Source: an uncultured bacterium
GTDB taxonomy: Bacteria; Desulfobacterota; Deferrimicrobia; Deferrimicrobiales; Deferrimicrobiaceae
Assembly (NCBI GenBank): GCA_964612075.1
Contig: CAZTFC010000007.1
Coordinates: 4,249 to 68,248 of the forward strand
Reading direction: 5' to 3'
Length of the DNA stretch: 64,000 nucleotides
Positions 44,839 to 54,541 of the stretch are shown here, piece after piece. Below the pieces are notes generated by a model. It worked only from the letters and a program-made list of their open reading frames with translations. It was not told the origin of the DNA and made no database searches. Position numbers and translations under genes: made by a program. Position 1 is the stretch's first letter; every line of letters begins with the position of its first letter.

Positions 44839-47376
44839 TCATTCCTCCCGCAGCGCCGCGGCGGGAGGGGATCCCGCCAGACGCGCGGCCGGGTAGAGCC
44901 CCGCCAGGAAGGACGCGGCCAGCGCCAGCGCGACGGCCTGCAGCAGGAGCCACGGATCGATGAAGGTCTGCATCGTCCACCCGAAGGAGCGGCGGTTGAC
45001 GACATGGATGAGGATCAGAGACTGCGCCAGCCCGAGCGGGACGGCGAGGCAGCCGGCGATCCCCCCGATCACGGCGGATTCCCCGGAGATCAGCCCGAAG
45101 GCCTGCGCCGGCGTGAGGCCGACGGCCCGCATCACGGCGTGCTCGCGCCCGCGCTCGAGCTGGATCGCCATCAGCGCGTTCAGGACCCCGGCGAAGGCGA
45201 TCAGCACGGTGAGGGCGCGCAGGACGTTCGTGACGCCGAAGGTGCGGTCGAAGACCTCGAGCGACGCGTCCTTGAGGGCGCGGTTCGAGCGGACGACGGC
45301 CGGCCGGCCGTCGAGCATCCCGCGGATCCTCTCGACCGCCTCGCCGACGGAGGCGCCGGGGACGAGCCGCAGCCCCACCGAATCGACGCCCCGGTCCTCC
45401 CAGTACAGGTCGTGGGTCTCCCCCAGGATCGCCACGATCCCCTGGTCCGAGCTGTAGTCGTAGTAGACGCCCGCCACCGGGAAATCGCGCGGCCCCTTGT
45501 CCGTACGCAGCCGGACCGCGTCTCCCTTCCGGAGGCCCTGTCGGTATGCGTACGGGTCGGAAACCATGACGGCGCCGCGCGAAAGGGCCTCCCACACCTC
45601 GCCGGGATCCCCTTCCCGGAAACGGAACGCGCGGATGCTCTCCGGGGGGACGCGCATCACGAACAGCTCGGTGAACCCTTCCGGCGACTCCAGCATCCGG
45701 CGGTTGAAAAGGACGGAGCCCTTCACGCCGGGGGCGGAGGTGATCGACGCCACCAGGTCGGGGGGGAGCGGCCTGCGGTCGGGCTCCTTCCGGTCCTCGA
45801 AGGAGGAGACGTAGACGTCCCCCAGGAGGGTGTAGTCCAGCCATTCCGACACCGTCCGCCGGAAGCTGTCGATCATGATCCCGATCCCCACCGTCGTGGA
45901 CACGGCGACCACGAGGGCGGCCGTCGCCACGCCCGTCCGGCTGATCGACGCGGGGACGCTGCGGGCGGCCATCTTCCCCGGCGTCCCGAAGAAGAGGGCC
46001 AGGGCGGGCTGGATCGCGCGGACCAGGAGGGCGACCGCGCCCGGCGTTCCGAGCGCGTACCCCGCCACGAGGCAGAACAGCCCGAAGAACGCAGGGAGGA
46101 CGCTGCGGGACGGGTAAAGCTGGATCCCGGCGCCAAGAAGGAGCAGCCCCGCGCCCGCCGCCGAGACCGCGGGCAGGACGGAAGACACGCCCTTCTCTAT
46201 TGCGGAACGGCGCATGACGTCCCTCGGCGGGGCGGTGGTCGCTTCGTGGGCGGGCCACAGCGACGCGGCGACCGATCCGAAGGTGCCCAGGACCGACGCC
46301 TTGAGGAACGTCGCGGCGGTCGGCGCGACGTCCCGGATGGACACGACGAAGTACAGGTCCCCGATGGACCGGGTCACCATGGCGAGGAGGAACTTGCCGA
46401 GATAGTACCCGAAGGGGAGGCCCAGCAGCGTACCCGCCGCCCCGAGGACGGCCGCCTCGGAGAGGACCTGCAGGAACACCTCGCCCCGCGTGACCCCGAG
46501 GGCCCGCAGCGTTCCCACGAGCTGGCGCCGCTGAAGGACCGAGAAGGTCATCGTGTTGTAGACGAGGAACATGCCGACCAGCAGCGAGAGCAGGCTCATC
46601 GCCTGGAGGTTCATGGAGAAGGCGCGCGTCATCCGCTCCATGGCCTTCCCGCGCGCGGCCGTCGGCACGATCTCCGCCCCCGCGGGAAGCACCCCGCGGA
46701 TCCGGGAGAGGGCGACTTCCCCCGCCTCCCCCTCGGGGACGCTCAGGTCGATCCGGGAGAGCCTCCCTTCCATGCCGAGGAGCTCCTGGGCGGTGGAGAT
46801 GTCCGCCACGGCCGTGCTTTCCAGTGCCTGGCGTGTCACCTCGTCCGGCGGGCGGAGAAAGCCCGAGAGGACGACCTTCCCCGGCTCCATGCCGACCCGC
46901 AGCGGCAGGGCGGCGCCCGGGGACAGCCCCAGGCGCCTCGCCGTATCCTCGAGGACCATGACCGCGCCCGGATGCGTGAGGAGGCGGGCGACGTCCGCGC
47001 CCGAGGCGGCCTCCGGCGTGTAGCTCCGGAACGGCGCCTCGGCGAACGGGTCGACCCCGAGGATGTGGAGGACGCCCCCGGTGCGTCCCGGGACGCGGGC
47101 GTACCCCTCGACGACCGGGGCGATCGTCCGCGATTGGCCCCGGCGCCGCAGCTCCGCGTACAGTTCTTCCGGGACGCCGGAGGCGCCCCCCACGATCCGG
47201 TGGGTCGCCTTCCCGGCGACGGTGTCGACGGAGATGCGGAAGGCGCGCCGGGCGCTTTCGTTGGCCAGGTCGATCGAGAAGACCGCCGCGACCCCGAGCG
47301 CCACCCCGACCAGGCCGAAGAGAAGCTGGACGGGGTGCCGGGAAAGGTGGCGCAGGCCGGCCAGCCGCAGGATCAT
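44839..47376 (-). CDS. ABC transporter permease with two FtsX domains (YbbP/AttG-like)
   Basis: 845 aa with two repeated 4-TM FtsX modules, each preceded by a large periplasmic loop. ATGA overlap with the upstream ATPase. Confidence 0.85.
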   Translation of the reverse strand: MILRLAGLRHLSRHPVQLLFGLVGVALGVAAVFSIDLANESARRAFRISVDTVAGKATHRIVGGASGVPEELYAELRRRGQSRTIAPVVEGYARVPGRTGGVLHILGVDPFAEAPFRSYTPEAASGADVARLLTHPGAVMVLEDTARRLGLSPGAALPLRVGMEPGKVVLSGFLRPPDEVTRQALESTAVADISTAQELLGMEGRLSRIDLSVPEGEAGEVALSRIRGVLPAGAEIVPTAARGKAMERMTRAFSMNLQAMSLLSLLVGMFLVYNTMTFSVLQRRQLVGTLRALGVTRGEVFLQVLSEAAVLGAAGTLLGLPFGYYLGKFLLAMVTRSIGDLYFVVSIRDVAPTAATFLKASVLGTFGSVAASLWPAHEATTAPPRDVMRRSAIEKGVSSVLPAVSAAGAGLLLLGAGIQLYPSRSVLPAFFGLFCLVAGYALGTPGAVALLVRAIQPALALFFGTPGKMAARSVPASISRTGVATAALVVAVSTTVGIGIMIDSFRRTVSEWLDYTLLGDVYVSSFEDRKEPDRRPLPPDLVASITSAPGVKGSVLFNRRMLESPEGFTELFVMRVPPESIRAFRFREGDPGEVWEALSRGAVMVSDPYAYRQGLRKGDAVRLRTDKGPRDFPVAGVYYDYSSDQGIVAILGETHDLYWEDRGVDSVGLRLVPGASVGEAVERIRGMLDGRPAVVRSNRALKDASLEVFDRTFGVTNVLRALTVLIAFAGVLNALMAIQLERGREHAVMRAVGLTPAQAFGLISGESAVIGGIAGCLAVPLGLAQSLILIHVVNRRSFGWTMQTFIDPWLLLQAVALALAASFLAGLYPAARLAGSPPAAALREE

Positions 47377-48080
47377 GCGGGCGGCCCCGCCGGCGCCGTT
47401 TCCTCCACGAGACGCCCGTCACGGAGCGCGAGCACCCGGTCGGCGGACCGGGCCACGGCGTCGTTGTGGGTCACGACGATCATCGCCCTTCCCTCCTTCC
47501 GCGCGAGCCCGAAGAGCAGCTCGAGCACCCGGCTTCCCGACTCGGCGTCCAGGCTTCCCGTCGGCTCGTCGGCCAGCAGGAGGAGGGGGTCGTGCACCAC
47601 CGCCCGGGCGACGGCGATCCGCTGCTGCTCGCCGCCCGAGAGGCGGTCCGGGTACGTGCCGGCACGGTCCGCGAGCCCGATCCGGTCGAGGAGACCGAGC
47701 GCGGCCGCGCGCGCCGCCTCGTCCCTGCGGCCGTTCAGCTCCAGCGGGAGCAGCAGGTTCTCGATCACCGTCAGGGTGGGGATGAGGTTGAACGACTGGA
47801 AGACGAGCCCGATGTGGCGGCGCCGGAACAGCGTCCGCTCCCGCTCCGACAGCCGCGTCAGGTTCGTCCCGTCGAGGATCACCTCGCCCCCGGTGGGCAG
47901 GTCGATGCCGCCGACGAGGTTCAGCAGGGTCGATTTCCCGGATCCGCTTCTGCCGAGGAGGGCCACCGACTCCCCGCGGGCGATCTCCGCGTCGAGGCCG
48001 CGGAACACGGTCCGCGTCGCTTCCCCTTCGGGAAAGCTCTTCGCGAGGCCGCGAAGCTGGACGAGCGGGATACCCGGCAT
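47373..48080 (-). CDS. ABC transporter ATP-binding protein (YbbA/LolD/AttF-like)
   Basis: Walker A GRSGSGKST, ABC signature LSGGEQQRIA, Walker B LLLADEPTGSLD. Confidence 0.9.
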   Translation of the reverse strand: MPGIPLVQLRGLAKSFPEGEATRTVFRGLDAEIARGESVALLGRSGSGKSTLLNLVGGIDLPTGGEVILDGTNLTRLSERERTLFRRRHIGLVFQSFNLIPTLTVIENLLLPLELNGRRDEAARAAALGLLDRIGLADRAGTYPDRLSGGEQQRIAVARAVVHDPLLLLADEPTGSLDAESGSRVLELLFGLARKEGRAMIVVTHNDAVARSADRVLALRDGRLVEETAPAGPPA

Positions 48081-48105
48081 GGTCCTATTGTATCGCGGGG
48101 GGGGG

Positions 48106-49095
48106 CTACTCCCCGTTCAGGAAGTCGATCAGGAGGCGCAGCCGGCCGAAGTTCCGTTCGTTGAACCGGAACACGATCCGCGGCAGGTCGGCCAGCTCCG
48201 GGTCGTCCGCCTCCTCGGGCAGGGCGCCTTCCTGGCGGAACGTCCCTCCGGACAGGAGGTCGGGGAACCCGGCGCGCAGCGCCTCGAGGCGGCCCGGCGC
48301 GAGCGGACGGCGGATGCGGATCACGAGGCGGTTCCCGACGTACCGGGAGCTGTGGTAGACGCGGTAGAAGCGCTGCATCTCCCCGACGGCCTCCTCCACG
48401 CTCCCGACGATCCGGAAGAGGGAAAGGTCGTCGGGCGAGATCAGCTCCCTGCGCAGGAGGTTCTCCTCGATCGACCGCCGCCACGAGGCCCAGTAGTCTC
48501 CGCCCGGCTCCTCCACGAGCACCATCGGGAAGGGGTGCGTCTTCCCGGTCTGGAGCAGCGTCAGCGTCTCGAACGCCTCGTCCATCGTGCCGTACCCGCC
48601 CGGAAAGAGGGCGATCCCGCTGGATTCCTTGAGGAACAACAGCTTCCTCGTGAAGAAATACTTGGTGTTGATCAGCTTCGGGTTCCCCTCCATGACCACG
48701 TTCTCCCGCTGCTCGAAAGGGAGGAGGATGTTGACGCCGATGGAGTGGTCGCGGCCGGCGCCCAGGTGGGCCGCCTTCATGATCCCTTCCCCCGCTCCGG
48801 TTACGACGAACCACCCCAGACGCGCCATCTCCCTGCCGAACTCCTCCGCCTGGCGGAACGACGGGGAGCCGGGGGCGGTGCGGGCGGAACCGAAGACCGT
48901 GACCTTGGGGCGCTCCCGGAGGGTGTCGAAGAGGCGGAAGGCGAGGCGCAGCTCCCGCAGGGCGCGGGAGAGGAGCTTCAGGTCCGCGCGGTTCGCGCCG
49001 TCCCCGGCCAGCCCGTCCACCGTCCGGTGGAGCTCCTGGAGGAGCTCGTCCGGCGTGACCTTGCGGTTTCCTCCGCGTCTCGTCGCGTTGGGCAT
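48106..49095 (-). CDS. LOG-family protein (nucleotide 5'-monophosphate nucleosidase / cytokinin riboside 5'-monophosphate phosphoribohydrolase-like)
   Basis: PGGYGTMDE motif, GxGxxG Rossmann fold, and a C-terminal extension. Confidence 0.8.
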   Translation of the reverse strand: MPNATRRGGNRKVTPDELLQELHRTVDGLAGDGANRADLKLLSRALRELRLAFRLFDTLRERPKVTVFGSARTAPGSPSFRQAEEFGREMARLGWFVVTGAGEGIMKAAHLGAGRDHSIGVNILLPFEQRENVVMEGNPKLINTKYFFTRKLLFLKESSGIALFPGGYGTMDEAFETLTLLQTGKTHPFPMVLVEEPGGDYWASWRRSIEENLLRRELISPDDLSLFRIVGSVEEAVGEMQRFYRVYHSSRYVGNRLVIRIRRPLAPGRLEALRAGFPDLLSGGTFRQEGALPEEADDPELADLPRIVFRFNERNFGRLRLLIDFLNGE

Positions 49096-49108: not shown

Positions 49109-51124
49109 TCAGTGACGCGAAGGGGCGTCGCCCGGGAGCAGCATGCGGATGGCCTGCCCGAGCTCGCCCATCTGGTAGGGCTTGGCGATGACGCCGCCGA
49201 AGCCGTAGTCCCGGTACATGGCGAGGATCGGGTCCTGGGAATAGCCGCTGGACACGATCACCTTCGCGTCGGGATCGATGTCGAGCAGCCTGCGGACGGC
49301 CTCCTTCCCTCCCATCGCGCCCGGGACGGTGAGGTCGAGGATCACGGCGTCGAACGGGGCCCCCGCCTTCATGGCTTCGACGTAGGCGTCGACCGCCCTC
49401 GATCCGTCGGGCACCGCGTGCCCCTCGTAGCCCATCGCCTCGAGCATGGACACCGCCACGTCCCTCACCATCTCCTCGTCGTCCATCACGAGGATCTTCC
49501 CGATGCCCGGGTGCGGCGCGGGGCCGGGATCGGGGATCTCCCGCACGGCCGTCGCCGCGGCGGGCAGGAAGATGGAAACGGTCGTCCCCCTGCCGGTCGA
49601 CGAATCCACGGTGATCGTGCCCTCGTGCCGCCTGACGATGGAATAGGCCGTGGCCAGCCCGAGGCCGGTGCCTTTTTCCTTCGTCGTGAAGAACGGGTTG
49701 AAGATCTTCCCGGCGTTCTCCTCCGGGATGCCGGCCCCCCGGTCCTCGACGTCGATCTTCACGTAGGCGCCCGGCGGCAGGGTACAGCCGGGAAGCTTCT
49801 CCACGTCGATGTTCCGGGCATCGACGCGGATGGCGCCGCCCTCGGGGCTGGCCTGCGCCGCGTTGAGGACGATGTTGTTGATGACCTGGCCGATCTGCCC
49901 GGGGTCGATGTCCACCGGCGAGAGGTCCTCCGCGACCGTGATCCGGCACTTGACGGTCGATCCCCGGAGGGCGAAGTTCGCGGACTCCTCGACGAGCCGG
50001 TTGATGCTGGAGGCCTGGCGGACGGGCGCCCCGCCCTTGGAGAAGGTGAGGAGCTGCCGGGTCAGGCTCTGGGCGCGGATCGCCGCCTTCTCCGCCTCCA
50101 GGAGGCGGGACCAGGTCGCTTCCCCGGGATCGACCCCGAGCTTTGCGAGGGAGAGGTACCCCATGACGGCGGTGAGGATGTTGTTGAAGTCGTGCGCGAT
50201 CCCCCCCGCCAGGATTCCTATGGATTCGAGCACGTTCGACTTGCGAAGCTCCTCCTCGGCCTGCTTCTTCCCCGTGACGTCCCGGAAGATGCCGCGTCCC
50301 GCGACGGGCTTCCCGTCCTCGAAGCGGCAGTTGATGCGCCCTTCCGCGGGGATCCGTCGGCCGTCCTTCGAGAGGAAGACCGTCTCGATGTTCCCCGGGT
50401 CCTTCCCGGCCATCACCTGGCGCAGCAGCTCCTCGTGCCGTTCCCTGCATTCCGGCGCGACGACGTCGGCCACGGAGAGCCGCTCGACCTCCTCCTCCGT
50501 GTAGCCGAGGGATTCGCGCCAGGCGCGGTTCACGAACAGGAAGCGGCCGTCCGGGGACACGCTTTCGATGAGGTCCAGGGCGTTTTCGAAGAAGTCCCGC
50601 AGCCTCTCCTCGCTCTCCCGAAGCGCCTTCTCGGCCGTTTTTCTCTCCGTGATGTCGCTGTTGCTGCCGCGGATGCCCAGGTACCGGCCGTTCTCCCCGA
50701 AGACGGGGCGGCCCCGGTGCTTGATCCAGCGCGTCTCCCCGTTCCGGTGGACGATGCGCAGCTCGAGCTGCCCGGGCACGAGGTCGGCCGACATCCGGCG
50801 GGAAAGATCCAGCCACATCTCCCGGTCTTCCGGGTGGACGATGGACAGGAACATGTCCCTGGATTCGTGGAATCGCGAGGGGGGGTACCCGGAGATCGTC
50901 TCGCAGGAAGGGCTGACGTAGAGCATCTCCCCGTCCGGGCCGTGCCAGAAGATCCAGTTGGTCGCGAATTCGGCGAGGGTGCGGTAGCGTTCCTCCTGCT
51001 CCCGGAGGGCGTTTTCCATCCGCTTCCTCTGGTCGATCTCCGAGCGGAGCATGCCGATCGCGTCGCGCAGCTCCTCGAGCTGCCGGTTCAACGGCTCTCC
51101 CGCCGCGGGAATCTCATCCGACAT
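49109..51124 (-). CDS. hybrid sensor histidine kinase / response regulator with two PAS domains
   Basis: Two PAS/PAC modules, HisKA H-box (GGIAHDFNNIL), HATPase_c (GTGLGL), C-terminal receiver (ILVMDDE...VILDLTVPG). Start at MSDEIP, which has an AGGAGGGA ribosome-binding site. Confidence 0.85.
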   Translation of the reverse strand: MSDEIPAAGEPLNRQLEELRDAIGMLRSEIDQRKRMENALREQEERYRTLAEFATNWIFWHGPDGEMLYVSPSCETISGYPPSRFHESRDMFLSIVHPEDREMWLDLSRRMSADLVPGQLELRIVHRNGETRWIKHRGRPVFGENGRYLGIRGSNSDITERKTAEKALRESEERLRDFFENALDLIESVSPDGRFLFVNRAWRESLGYTEEEVERLSVADVVAPECRERHEELLRQVMAGKDPGNIETVFLSKDGRRIPAEGRINCRFEDGKPVAGRGIFRDVTGKKQAEEELRKSNVLESIGILAGGIAHDFNNILTAVMGYLSLAKLGVDPGEATWSRLLEAEKAAIRAQSLTRQLLTFSKGGAPVRQASSINRLVEESANFALRGSTVKCRITVAEDLSPVDIDPGQIGQVINNIVLNAAQASPEGGAIRVDARNIDVEKLPGCTLPPGAYVKIDVEDRGAGIPEENAGKIFNPFFTTKEKGTGLGLATAYSIVRRHEGTITVDSSTGRGTTVSIFLPAAATAVREIPDPGPAPHPGIGKILVMDDEEMVRDVAVSMLEAMGYEGHAVPDGSRAVDAYVEAMKAGAPFDAVILDLTVPGAMGGKEAVRRLLDIDPDAKVIVSSGYSQDPILAMYRDYGFGGVIAKPYQMGELGQAIRMLLPGDAPSRH

Positions 51125-51421
51125 CCGCCGATTTCCCTCCTGTCGCACACTGCTTCCGGACCGGCCGGCAGGGGCGACGGCTGATCAGGATACCACCGCG
51201 GAAACCCGTCCGCCACCTGTCCCTGTTTTTTCGGAAAAAACCGGGCGGACCTTCATCCCCGCCGCGCGGAAGAGGGCCGGGAGAGGTGGGCGGCGCGGCC
51301 GGGGACCGGGAACGGTTTCACGCGCCGGGCAGCGTTACCGCTTGGTCTTCCATATCGCCGATGTTATCTTCAAGGGAAGTTCCTGGACAGTCCAAAGGCG
51401 GCTCTGGCGCGGAGGTGACCC

Positions 51422-52975
51422 TTGAACTATCCGGTTTGGTACCTGCCTGAAGTCGGCGGCGGACTGCTGATCGCCATCATCGCCGTCGTCCACGTCTTCA
51501 TCTCCCATTTCGCGGTGGGGGGCGGGCTGTACCTCGTGCTCGCCGAGCGTAAGGGGATCCGGGAGAAAAGCGCGGCGATCCTCGAATTCACCCGCTCCCA
51601 CACCAAGTTTTTCCTCCTTATGACCGTCGTCGCGGGCGGCATCACCGGCGTCGCCATATGGTGGATCATCTCCCTGGTGCATCCCGCAGCCACCTCCCTC
51701 CTGATCCACACCTTCGTCTTCGGCTGGGCCATCGAGTGGGTGTTCTTCCTCGTGGAGATCGTTTCGATCTTCATCTACTTCTATACGTTCGGCCGCATGG
51801 ACGACCGGACCCACCAGATCATGGGGTGGATCTATTTCATCGCCGCCTGGCTCAGCCTGTTCGTGATCAACGGCATCATCGGGTTCATGCTGGATCCCGG
51901 CACATGGCCGGAGGACCGCTCGTTCTGGTCCGGATTCTTCAACCCGCTGTTCTGGCCCGCCCTCGTCTTCCGGACGGCGGTCGCCTGCATGTTCGCGGGA
52001 GTGTATGCCTTCCTGACCACCGCGTTCCTCGACGACCCGGGGACGAAGCGTTCCATGACCCTGTTTTCCGCGAAATGGGTCCTCGTCTCCTGGCTGACCG
52101 CCATCCCGTGCGGCATCTGGTATTACCTGGCCGTTCCTGCGGAAGCGCGGGCGCTGATCGCCGGCGCTTCCCCGACCATCCAGCGGGCGCTCCAGGCGGG
52201 CTTGTGGGCGGTCTCGGCGCTCGCCGTGCTGACGCTGCTCCTCGTCATCCTCAAGCCGGCCCGACATACGCGTCCCGTTTCGTTCTTCATATTCCTTTGC
52301 GCCCTGGTGTTCATGGGGGCGTTCGAATGGACCCGCGAGGCGGCGAGGAGGCCCTACGTGGTCAACAGGGTGCTGTACTCCAACGGCATCGCGCGGGCGG
52401 ACGTACCGAGGCTTCAACGCACCGGCTACCTCGAGGCCGCCCTGTGGACAAGGCACAAGGGGGTCGATGAGGAGAACCTTGCGGAGGCGGGCAAGGAGCT
52501 TTTCGTCCACCAGTGCCATGCCTGCCACACCATCGGCGGGGCCAACAACGACATCCTGGCCCGGACGCGGAGCATGTCGTTTCCCGCGATGGCTTCCTAC
52601 ATCCGGACGATCCACGAGAAGCGGTATTTCATGCCCCCCTTCGCCGGCACCGAAGCCGAAGTGCGGGCGCTGGCGACGTTCATCGTGGGCGGGCTGCACG
52701 GAAAGGAAATCGCCGAGAGGCGGCCGTCCGCGGCGGGGGCCCCTTCCGGAAGGGACGTTTTCGAGGAGCATTGTTCCGCCTGCCACACCCTGAGCGGCGG
52801 GGACAACCCGGTTTCGCCGAAGGTGGCCGGATGGGACCGGAAGAGGATCCGGGGAGCGCTCGACCGGCTGGAAACGCTCGCGGACGGCGCCATGCCGCCC
52901 CTCAAGGCCTCGCCGGCGGAAAAGGACGCCCTTTCCGATTTCCTGGTCTCGACGCAGCGGGGAGGTGCGCAATGA
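51422..52975 (+). CDS. cytochrome bd-family (CydA-like) membrane subunit fused to a C-terminal dihaem cytochrome c domain
   Basis: N-terminal 9-TM region carries CydA-like landmarks: His in TM1 (VHVFISHF), AIEWVFFLVE resembling the CydA AIEG..FFLE segment, EWTREAARRPY resembling the GRQPW region. C-terminal soluble part has two CxxCH motifs (CHACH, CSACH). TTG start with a GGAGGTGA ribosome-binding site. Confidence 0.65.
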   Translation: MNYPVWYLPEVGGGLLIAIIAVVHVFISHFAVGGGLYLVLAERKGIREKSAAILEFTRSHTKFFLLMTVVAGGITGVAIWWIISLVHPAATSLLIHTFVFGWAIEWVFFLVEIVSIFIYFYTFGRMDDRTHQIMGWIYFIAAWLSLFVINGIIGFMLDPGTWPEDRSFWSGFFNPLFWPALVFRTAVACMFAGVYAFLTTAFLDDPGTKRSMTLFSAKWVLVSWLTAIPCGIWYYLAVPAEARALIAGASPTIQRALQAGLWAVSALAVLTLLLVILKPARHTRPVSFFIFLCALVFMGAFEWTREAARRPYVVNRVLYSNGIARADVPRLQRTGYLEAALWTRHKGVDEENLAEAGKELFVHQCHACHTIGGANNDILARTRSMSFPAMASYIRTIHEKRYFMPPFAGTEAEVRALATFIVGGLHGKEIAERRPSAAGAPSGRDVFEEHCSACHTLSGGDNPVSPKVAGWDRKRIRGALDRLETLADGAMPPLKASPAEKDALSDFLVSTQRGGAQ

Positions 52976-54036
52976 TCCTGCCGATCCCGGCCCTCGAAGC
53001 GCTTCCGGCCGCCTGGGGATGGTTCCAGGGGCTCCTGATGCTGATGTTCCCGCTCCACCTGCTCCTGATGAACGCGATGCTCGGCTTCGCGGTCATCTCG
53101 CTGTATGCCCTGCTGAAGGGCGGGAAGACCGAGCGGCGGCTTGCCCACGAACTGGCCAAGGCGCTCCCGCTCCTCATCGCCTTCGCCGTCAACTTCGGGG
53201 TCGCGGCCCTGTTGTTCCTCCAGGCGATCCTCGGGAACTTCTTCTACACGAGTTCGGTGCTGATGGCGGTCTACTGGCTGGCCGTCCCGGCGATCCTGGT
53301 CGTCGCCTACTACGCCGCCTACATCTACGACTTCCGGTTCGAGTCCCTCGGGAAGGCCGCCGCGGTCCCGATCGCCCTCGCCACGGTTCTCTTCCTCGCG
53401 ATCGCCTTCCTCTTCACGAACAACACGACCCTCATGATCGAGCCGGTCCGCTGGAGCGGGTATTTCTCCGATCCGGGGGGTACCCTGCTGGAACCGGGAA
53501 GAGGCTCCATGTGGGCGCGCTACCTCCATTTCGTGACCAGCGGGCTGGCGGTGGGCGGGGTGTCCGTGGCCGTGTTCGGGCGCTGGAAGGAAAGACAGGA
53601 TCCGACGCTGGGAGAGCGCGCCGTCAGGATCGGCATGCACTCGTTCACGATGCTCACGGCGCTGCAGCTGGGGCTGGGGGTCTTGTACCTCGTCTCGCTG
53701 CCGCGTCCCGTGATGATGCTCTTCATGGGGGGCGGGAAGGCGGAGACCGGGATGCTGATCGCCGGCCTGGCGCTCACCGTCGGCGCCCTGGCGGCGGGGT
53801 TCCTGCAGAAGGTGGCCTTGAGCGCCGGCCTCGCGGTCTCCCTGGTCTACGTGATGGCCTTCATGCGGGACGCGGTCCGCACCGCCAGCCTCAAGCCGTT
53901 CTACGCACCGGAGACGCTCGCGGTCGTGGCGGAGTATTTGCCGCTGCTGCTGTTCGTCGTCCTCCTGGTCCTCGGCGCGGCCGTCATCGCCTGGATGCTT
54001 TGGAAGACCGTCCAGGTCTATCGCGACGCGGATTGA
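52972..54036 (+). CDS. polytopic membrane protein, putative second subunit (CydB- or CydA'-like) of the bd-like complex
   Basis: 354 aa, about 8 TM helices. First helix FPLHLLLMNAMLGFAV...GGK loosely resembles the CydA TM1 pattern. ATGA coupling to the upstream gene. Confidence 0.5.
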   Translation: MILPIPALEALPAAWGWFQGLLMLMFPLHLLLMNAMLGFAVISLYALLKGGKTERRLAHELAKALPLLIAFAVNFGVAALLFLQAILGNFFYTSSVLMAVYWLAVPAILVVAYYAAYIYDFRFESLGKAAAVPIALATVLFLAIAFLFTNNTTLMIEPVRWSGYFSDPGGTLLEPGRGSMWARYLHFVTSGLAVGGVSVAVFGRWKERQDPTLGERAVRIGMHSFTMLTALQLGLGVLYLVSLPRPVMMLFMGGGKAETGMLIAGLALTVGALAAGFLQKVALSAGLAVSLVYVMAFMRDAVRTASLKPFYAPETLAVVAEYLPLLLFVVLLVLGAAVIAWMLWKTVQVYRDAD

Positions 54037-54040
54037 CGGC

Positions 54041-54523
54041 TTACGGGCGGGTCAGGGAGCGGACGGTCTCCGCTTCGCCGGGATGCGCCGCAAGGAGCTC
54101 GTCCCTCGCGGCCAGCTCGAAATCCCCGAAGTCGAAGCCGGGGGCCACGACGCAGGAGACCAGGCAGTAGTCGCCGGTCGGCCGGGCCGCCTGGAAGGCT
54201 CCCGCCGGGACGACCGTCGCGGGCGGGCCGCCGTCCCCCACCGACGCGATCGTCCTGCGCTCCGCTCCGCCGGGGGACAGGATGAACAGCTCGACCGGGC
54301 CGCCGGACAGGTGGATCCAGGCCTCCTCGCTCCGGAGCCGATGGAAGGCCGAGAACTCCCCGCGGCGCAGGCAGAACCAGATCGCGGTGAACGCCGGGCG
54401 CGGGCCGGGATATCCCGGGAGATTCTCGAGAACGGCCCCCGAGCAGTGGAATTCCCGGTACCATCCCCCCTCGGGATGGGGGGACAGGCCGTACGACCGG
54501 ATGATCGCGTCCGCGTCCGTCAT
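54041..54523 (-). CDS. cupin-domain protein (DUF985-like)
   Basis: 160 aa with cupin beta-barrel motifs (PHPEGGWYREF, AFHRLRSEEAWIHLSG). Start at MTDADAII. Confidence 0.65.
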   Translation of the reverse strand: MTDADAIIRSYGLSPHPEGGWYREFHCSGAVLENLPGYPGPRPAFTAIWFCLRRGEFSAFHRLRSEEAWIHLSGGPVELFILSPGGAERRTIASVGDGGPPATVVPAGAFQAARPTGDYCLVSCVVAPGFDFGDFELAARDELLAAHPGEAETVRSLTRP

Positions 54524-54541
54524 GACGTAGAATTTACCATT

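Follow-up and report, generated by a model that had tools for sequence, protein, structure and literature searches.

Cytochrome bd oxidases are regarded as strictly quinol-driven. The OR-C families of the bd superfamily were defined from genomes in 2021, with cytochrome c proposed as their electron donor (Murali, Gennis and Hemp, bioRxiv 10.1101/2021.01.16.426971). As described in that study, OR-C1a is a CydA with eight transmembrane (TM) segments, no quinol site and a C-terminal haem c, while OR-C1b is an adjacent paralogue. Here we analyse a two-gene operon on a 64,000-nucleotide stretch of DNA from an uncultured bacterium of the Deferrimicrobiaceae (the window; contig CAZTFC010000007.1 of assembly GCA_964612075.1). 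It consists of the open reading frames (ORFs) ORF1 (51422–52975, plus strand, 517 residues, TTG start) and ORF2 (52972–54036, plus strand, 354 residues, ATG start). The operon almost certainly encodes an OR-C1 enzyme, with ORF1 as the OR-C1a-type homologue of cytochrome bd subunit I and ORF2 as its bd-fold, OR-C1b-type partner. Judged from the sequence, its most likely function, to which we give about an even chance, is electrogenic reduction of O2 by cytochrome c through the c-haems fused to ORF1.

The locus shares with CydAB (E. coli bd-I and G. thermodenitrificans bd; PDB 6rko, 5ir6) the TM1 histidine, the glutamate pair of TM3, the histidine/serine proton path of TM4, a two-subunit pseudo-symmetric design and, probably, an E-x2-R-x-P-W motif ending TM8. 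It differs from CydAB in that ORF1 lacks the Q-loop and the H186/M393 haem b558 site, and in that CydA TM9 is replaced by a dihaem cytochrome c predicted to be periplasmic. ORF2 is a CydA paralogue with H19- and H186-type histidines, whereas CydB is haem-free, and no CydX-like gene was seen at the locus. The CydAA′ enzyme (qOR4a/qOR4b) of Caldivirga maquilingensis likewise combines two CydA paralogues, the ‘b’ copy of which is without the proton-channel glutamates, and has been shown to reduce O2 (Murali, bioRxiv 10.1101/2021.01.16.426971); it differs in being archaeal, in oxidising quinol via a Q-loop and in having no haem c. The OR-N ‘bd-like oxidases’ of Nitrospira and Ca. Manganitrophus are also without a quinol site and biochemical characterisation, and are presumed to use a non-quinol donor, but they have 10 or 14 TM segments, no fused haem c and other operon partners. 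CcoP, the dihaem c subunit of cbb3 oxidases, similarly has a tandem pair of class I His/Met domains (PF13442) on the periplasmic face that feed a membrane oxidase. It is a subunit of its own within a haem-copper oxidase, whereas in ORF1 the domains are joined to a bd-type core that has no copper.

From OR-C1a/OR-C1b themselves the locus has no defining difference. It has the same 8-TM core without a quinol site, the same C-terminal CxxCH, the same ten signature residues and the same adjacent paralogue without haem c, and the hosts are likewise Desulfobacterota, Desulfuromonadota and Acidobacteriota. The window member is of a dihaem type, apparently His/Met class I, with gene order a→b, while others carry one, three or eight CxxCH motifs.

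A two-gene OR-C1 operon

The ATG of ORF2 lies on the TGA of ORF1 in an ATGA overlap, and each start codon is preceded at a 4-nucleotide spacing by the Shine–Dalgarno sequence GGAGGTG (51411–51417 for ORF1 and 52961–52967 for ORF2, both plus strand). On four independent Logan contigs the two ORFs are called with equal lengths and the flanking genes are also the same. The proposal of an earlier note on this DNA, that these are two genes coupled by a 4-bp ATGA, is thus borne out by the ORF calls. ORF1 and ORF2 are real genes and not chance ORFs, because ORF1 has a GC content at third codon positions of 0.87 (window GC about 69%) and because homologues ranging from 97% to about 30% identity have strongly conserved columns. 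Full-length ORF1 homologues share the start MNYPVW. The closest named relatives are metagenome-assembled genomes labelled Deltaproteobacteria or Thermodesulfobacteriota.

The OR-C1a reference in Murali Suppl. Table 6 lists H24, E105, E112, S145, H131, Y119, Y121, V77, W80 and F183, and all ten residues are found in ORF1 at identical numbers, so that the earlier suggestion of an OR-C-type protein now stands position for position. Published OR-C1a hosts include many cultured organisms, among them Desulfovibrio, Sulfurospirillum, Hydrogenobacter, Chitinophaga, Myroides and Lysinibacillus, and haem-free OR-C1b partners are listed there as ‘hypothetical protein’ (Murali Table 7). In the same survey, 532 OR-C sequences were counted in 24,706 GTDB genomes (Murali, 10.1101/2021.01.16.426971).

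The family is widespread in our searches too. In a one-genome-per-species scan, at least 595 stretches encode relatives, which among the matches listed belong mostly to Desulfuromonadales/Geobacteraceae, Desulfobulbales and Acidobacteriota. When 1.84 billion cluster representatives were searched exhaustively with HMMER, 865 clusters at 50% identity were obtained, with proteins of about 420–930 residues. Among 102 full-length representatives, one CxxCH motif is present in 50, two in 18, three in 2 and eight in 17. In 82 of 84 loci the homologues of ORF1 and ORF2 are neighbours, both exceptions being at contig ends. The gene order is a→b in the 2–3-haem type to which the window belongs, and b→a in the octahaem type and in some monohaem members. 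Two Geopsychrobacteraceae genomes have the octahaem OR-C1a divided between two overlapping ORFs (L071:6001-8818 and L081:6001-8849), one of about 440 residues with one CxxCH and the other of about 510 residues with seven, owing either to a natural split or to a frameshift that both genomes share.

These results qualify what can be claimed as new. The operon had been put forward as the best candidate for a novel system in the window, but the family and its two-subunit layout were described in 2021 and are widespread. Our analysis shows that ORF2 is a true CydA paralogue and that the two genes form a self-contained module; it also adds the histidines of H19 and H186 type in OR-C1b and an E445-like motif in OR-C1a, and corrects the helix counts. 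The statement that OR-C enzymes are biochemically uncharacterised agrees with our reading of the literature, in which no biochemical or experimental study of any OR-C member was found; a 2026 cryo-electron microscopy paper cites OR-C only as a phylogenetic class.

The membrane core of ORF1

The residue assignments in the membrane domain of ORF1 (51422–52357, plus strand, residues 1–312) draw on hidden Markov model (HMM) alignment to CydA 9r2g_A, on hhalign, on Murali Suppl. Table 6 and on family conservation. A search with PF01654 (Cyt_bd_oxida_I) scored 34.8 bits, above the gathering score of 26.2, with residues 17–200 of ORF1 matching positions 6–196 of the 418-position profile, and the family profile aligned with E. 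coli CydA by hhalign at E = 6.1e-5. ORF1 also has the CydA fold of two four-helix bundles. In its AlphaFold2 model (mean predicted local distance difference test score 73.7, mostly 75–95 in the membrane part) eight long helices precede the soluble domain, and hydropathy likewise gives eight TM segments, rather than the roughly nine counted before.

Lysine and arginine residues number 6, 2, 3 and 3 in the TM1–2, TM3–4, TM5–6 and TM7–8 loops of ORF1, and only 0–2 in each of the even-numbered loops. Since there are eight TM segments and the odd-numbered loops are the basic ones, the positive-inside rule predicts that the N-terminus and the C-terminal haem c domain are both periplasmic, and not cytoplasmic. 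This orientation agrees with the N-out topology of CydA, and we know of no attachment of c-type haem other than on the periplasmic side.

The active-site histidine and the proton-path residues of CydA have counterparts in the ORF1 core. In the HMM and profile alignments H24 (51491–51493, within the segment HVFISH at 51491–51508 that also holds H29) pairs with E. coli CydA H19, E105 and E112 (in AIEWVFFLVE, 51728–51757) with E99 and E107, and H131 (51812–51814) with H126, while S145 (51854–51856) corresponds to S140. The likeness of the TM1 histidine and of the AIEWVFFLVE segment to CydA, remarked on before from the sequence, therefore reflects aligned residues. The two glutamates are spaced one residue tighter than in E. 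coli, which is typical of non-qOR1 families. The quinol-oxidising part, in contrast, is missing: the position of the haem b558 ligand H186 is taken by F183–R184 of ORF1 (51968–51973), with F183 given likewise in Murali Table S6, and there is no equivalent of M393, for which Murali Suppl. Table 6 gives none either. The connection between TM6 and TM7 is only about 18 residues long, so that ORF1 has no Q-loop, as the earlier reader had surmised.

Conservation was measured over 103 family representatives of 30–73% identity. Residues H24, W80, W102, E105, E112, N174, R184, R305, R309 and P311 are conserved in at least 93%, with H24, E105 and E112 at 93–96%. Position 145 is serine or threonine in 100 representatives, and position 131 is histidine in 87 and arginine in 10. 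As extra metal or haem ligands, H29, H60 and H96 of ORF1 were rejected as universal features, being histidine in 79, 55 and 62 representatives respectively.

At the end of TM8 lies the segment EWTREAARRPY (52325–52357, plus strand, residues 302–312), which had been said to recall the GRQPW region of CydA. The segment is present, and the spacing E306-x2-R309-x-P311-Y312 is that of E. coli CydA E445-x2-R448-x-P450-W451, in which E445 is the haem b595 ligand; the resemblance fits the E445–GRQPW spacing but has no HMM support. Across the family the motif takes the form E-x2-R-x-P-[YFW], with R305, R309 and P311 at least 96% conserved and E302/E306 present in 92 of the 103 representatives. The motif arose by chance anywhere in the domain in 908 of 200000 shuffles (0.45%). 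A TM7–TM8 sub-profile gave no CydA match among PDB sequences, however, the hhalign alignment with the single E. coli CydA sequence stops short of TM8, and Murali Suppl. Table 6 (bioRxiv 10.1101/2021.01.16.426971) has ‘-’ at E445 for OR-C1a. On balance, E306 is the likely counterpart of E445.

The fused haem c domains

Following the membrane core, Pfam profiles identify two PF13442 (Cytochrome_CBB3)/Cytochrom_C domains, at residues 354–421 and from about residue 443, so that the soluble C-terminal domain and both of the CxxCH motifs reported for it were recovered. The first domain (52454–52696, plus strand, residues 345–425; PF13442) holds CHACH at 52514–52528, followed by Met404 (52631–52633) in the invariant RYFMPPF. 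The second (52727–52957, plus strand, residues 436–512; PF13442/PF00034) holds CSACH at 52772–52786, followed by Met491 (52892–52894) in AMPPL. Because a conserved methionine follows each CxxCH in a class-I-like context, Met404 and Met491 are the likely distal ligands, which suggests that both haems are His/Met-coordinated. His/Met class I c-haems are typically of high potential, as in CcoP of cbb3 oxidases.

ORF2 as a CydA paralogue

ORF2 and 34 of its homologues gave no sequence match in Pfam, NCBIfam or PDB, and the CydB profile PF02322 did not match ORF2. Its relationship was detected only by profile–profile and fold comparison. When profiles of 76 ORF2 homologues and of 103 ORF1-type membrane domains were compared, the two aligned over 272 columns, colinearly from TM1 to the end of TM8 (probability 98%, E 1.6e-13), and fold comparison also found the bd fold for ORF2. 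This colinear alignment identifies ORF2 as a true paralogue of the ORF1 core within the bd superfamily. The choice left by the earlier note, between a CydB-like and a CydA′ subunit, falls to the CydA′ type; its count of eight helices gives way to about nine TM segments in the model.

The alignment separates the two subunits at the functional residues. ORF2 H29 (53056–53058, plus strand) pairs with ORF1 H24 and thus with E. coli CydA H19, and ORF2 H186 (53527–53529, plus strand, in RYLHFVTS) pairs with ORF1 F183, at the position of the E. coli haem b558 ligand H186. The ORF1 glutamates E105 and E112 are matched in ORF2 by V105 and A112, and ORF2 is therefore without the proton path. Of 200 homologues, with identities as low as about 33%, 199 have both H29 and H186, and M33, N34, M155, R183, M295, R299 and R303 are co-conserved. 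CxxCH is absent from ORF2 and from all of its homologues taken from 76 loci. Since two histidines are retained at CydA haem-ligand positions, unlike in CydB, ORF2 probably binds haem.

Proposed function and alternatives

If OR-C1 is a cytochrome c:O2 reductase, reduced periplasmic cytochrome c would donate to the two fused His/Met c-haems at the C-terminus of ORF1, which would stand in for the quinol-oxidising module of CydA, made up of the Q-loop and haem b558. Electrons would then pass to a high-spin haem site in the TM1–4/TM8 bundle of ORF1, held by H24 and probably E306. This site would be the counterpart of haem d/b595, and O2 would be reduced to water there. Protons would be taken from the cytoplasm via the conserved E105/E112/S145/H131 path. 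Since electrons and protons would arrive from opposite sides, the periplasm and the cytoplasm respectively, turnover would be electrogenic and would build a membrane potential without pumping, as in cytochrome bd. ORF2 would pair with ORF1 as CydB or CydA′ pairs with CydA, probably also bearing haem. In the mostly anaerobic hosts such an enzyme may serve to scavenge O2 with electrons of the periplasmic cytochrome pool. Apart from the residues themselves and the topology, these are steps that we infer; this reading, the best supported of those considered, is the proposal of cytochrome c-driven, bd-type O2 reduction made by the family's describers (bioRxiv 10.1101/2021.01.16.426971).

Several observations weigh against this function. 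No biochemical report on any OR-C member was found in the literature, and most hosts among the matches listed are anaerobes, such as Desulfuromonadales and Desulfobulbales. Sister subfamilies carry eight c3/c7/MtrC-like haems of a kind typical of low-potential electron wires. A simple route from c-haems to active site has no role for ORF2 H29 and H186, and the equivalence of E306 and E445 is that of a short motif without HMM support. In Sulfurospirillum multivorans, moreover, the OR-C1a protein SMUL_0150 was up 39.5-fold in anoxic cells adapted to pyruvate fermentation, being one of four proteins strongly raised in fermentation-adapted cells, and in two species OR-C1a of the S. multivorans type was 7–8-fold higher in fermenting than in respiring cells (PMC6242987). 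Such anoxic induction is not obviously what an O2 reductase would show.

Part of this evidence bears on a different, rather unlikely function, in which OR-C1 would not be a terminal reductase but a bd-fold module passing electrons in either direction between the menaquinone pool and periplasmic c-type cytochromes, like Qrc, CbcL or ACIII. Both subunits would then carry b-haems (at ORF2 H29/H186 and ORF1 H24), and the fused c-haems would form the periplasmic port. The retention of the CydA H19- and H186-type histidines in 199 of 200 ORF2 homologues would fit, as would the octahaem c3/c7-like variants (17 of 102 representatives), the OTR octahaem reductase that follows the pair in six Geobacter/Trichlorobacter loci, the induction of SMUL_0150 in anoxic fermentation (PMC6242987) and hosts rich in extracellular or periplasmic electron transfer. 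Set against these are the lack of a Q-loop or recognisable quinol site in either subunit, the family-wide conservation of the E105/E112/S145/H131 proton path, which a simple electron wire would not need, the His/Met class I character of the window-type c-haems, and the restriction of the OTR link to one clade. We give a similarly low probability to a reading in which OR-C1 is a heterodimer with b-haems in both subunits and not a simple O2 reductase; under anoxia it would connect periplasmic cytochrome c with the membrane or the quinone pool, or else it would have two routes of electron entry.

NO and H2O2 are both known to react with canonical bd oxidases, and the oxidant of a cytochrome c-dependent membrane enzyme might be not O2 but NO, H2O2 or a substrate of the nitrite/hydroxylamine type, making OR-C1 a detoxifying reductase; we consider this less probable again than an electron-transfer module. 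It would suit hosts that are mainly anaerobes or microaerophiles (among the matches listed in the scan and in Murali Table S7), the weak NnrU-like neighbour at some Desulfobulbaceae loci (24.4 bits, cutoff 24.7) and the one locus at which the pair stands beside an Rrf2-family regulator and cydAB. The conserved residues are nevertheless those of the bd O2-reducing site and proton path, the family also occurs in the aerobes Chitinophaga, Myroides and Lysinibacillus, and no conserved neighbour belongs to nitrogen-oxide or peroxide metabolism, although this last point counts weakly. Finally, an ordinary quinol-oxidising CydAB of unusual look, which the Cyt_bd_oxida_I match and CydA fold might suggest, is highly improbable and is ruled out by the sequence features of the two ORFs, as the Pfam match covers only profile positions 6–196 of 418, F183 occupies the H186 position, an M393 equivalent and a Q-loop are lacking, ORF1 has two CxxCH domains, ORF2 has no PF02322 match, and in L086 the genuine cydAB is a separate operon.

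Gene neighbourhood

ORF clustering over 81 loci found no conserved third gene. Most loci share only the OR-C1 pair and antisense shadow ORFs, and any other neighbour occurs in at most 12 loci. The lineage-specific neighbours are PAS hybrid kinases (7 loci), PspF/PspA (about 9–12), GGDEF proteins (about 10) and OTR octahaem cytochromes (6). The complete genomes of a Desulfonatronum and a Thermodesulfomicrobium each have the pair as a lone bicistron surrounded by unrelated genes. Of 90 loci, one (L086) has canonical cydAB in its vicinity and none has an FdnG homologue there.

In the window, a PAS–PAS–HisKA–HATPase–REC hybrid sensor kinase (Pfam; 49109–51148, minus strand) is encoded divergently, 273 nucleotides from ORF1, close to the 300 or so estimated before. 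A similar kinase is found in seven loci including the window's contig; it is adjacent in five others of about 80 and some 4 kb off in L005. The kinase that was thought to suggest redox or gas-responsive control is thus present, but its link to the OR-C1 pair as a dedicated regulator is weak. The intergenic region (51149–51421) carries the ORF1 Shine–Dalgarno sequence, and no sigma-70-like promoter was found in it. A terminator-like hairpin with a T-run lies on its minus strand at 51244–51263, upstream of the kinase start; the count of terminator-like sites in this region is near chance (four found, 2.3 expected).

The remaining flanking genes are of housekeeping kind or unrelated, and encode a MacB-type ABC transporter, a LOG/SLOG-family protein, a DUF985 cupin, an outer-membrane beta-barrel protein and carB. 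On the minus strand at 44839–49095 are a MacB/FtsX-type ABC permease (845 residues), its ATPase (235 residues) and a LOG/SLOG ‘lysine decarboxylase-like’ protein (329 residues), genes which are unconnected to respiration; on related contig L001 an AttH-like gene stands beside the permease. Downstream, the cupin gene (54041–54538, minus strand; PF06172, E 6.7e-39) converges on ORF2 with the stop codons four nucleotides apart, and no terminator-like site was detected in the interval; the four related contigs all show this arrangement.

Other loci have neighbours of their own. In six loci of Geobacter/Trichlorobacter type (L009, L010, L013, L017, L028 and L030) an octahaem c cytochrome of the OTR (tetrathionate-reductase) family follows OR-C1b on the same strand. 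In L010 (8966-10429) it starts about 140 nucleotides after OR-C1b and scores 513 bits with TIGR04315 (cutoff 375). This cytochrome may be a clade-specific electron partner of OR-C1. In L086 (570-7882) an octahaem OR-C1 pair is divergent from genes for an Rrf2 regulator, DUF4492, cydA, cydB and a small ORF. In L035 (2449-7761) divergent pspA/pspF genes (TIGR02974, 459 bits) and then a PAS hybrid kinase lie directly upstream of OR-C1a/b; the same layout in L029, L038 and other Desulfobulbales loci makes this a phage-shock (membrane stress) neighbourhood. A membrane protein of about 205 residues follows the octahaem OR-C1a in L073 (8707-9336) and in four other Desulfobulbaceae loci, its NnrU score of 24.4 bits being below the cutoff of 24.7.

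A further lead comes from Desulfovibrio vulgaris. For strain DP4, Murali Suppl. Table 7 assigns Dvul_0759 and the gene next to it to OR-C1a/b. In strain Hildenborough, the fdh2 operon of the O2-insensitive formate dehydrogenase (DVU2485–2481) includes two ‘cytochrome c’ genes, DVU2484 (47.7 kDa) and DVU2483 (61.9 kDa) (PMC10920352; bioRxiv 10.1101/2022.01.18.476765). These ‘cytochrome c’ genes match OR-C1 in size, and DVU2484/DVU2485 may be an OR-C1 pair.

Significance

The window locus is a compact, self-contained two-gene example of OR-C1 and does not found a new family. It provides candidate haem ligands for both subunits: H24 and E306 for OR-C1a, H29 and H186 for OR-C1b. Should both subunits be haem-bearing and linked to quinone, OR-C1 would be a new kind of respiratory module on the bd scaffold. 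If instead OR-C1 is a bd enzyme fed by cytochrome c, it would be a third route from periplasmic electrons to O2, besides the aa3 and cbb3 haem-copper oxidases. The hosts are mainly metal- and sulfur-reducing ‘anaerobes’, whose tolerance of O2 matters for sediments, bioremediation and bioelectrochemical systems.

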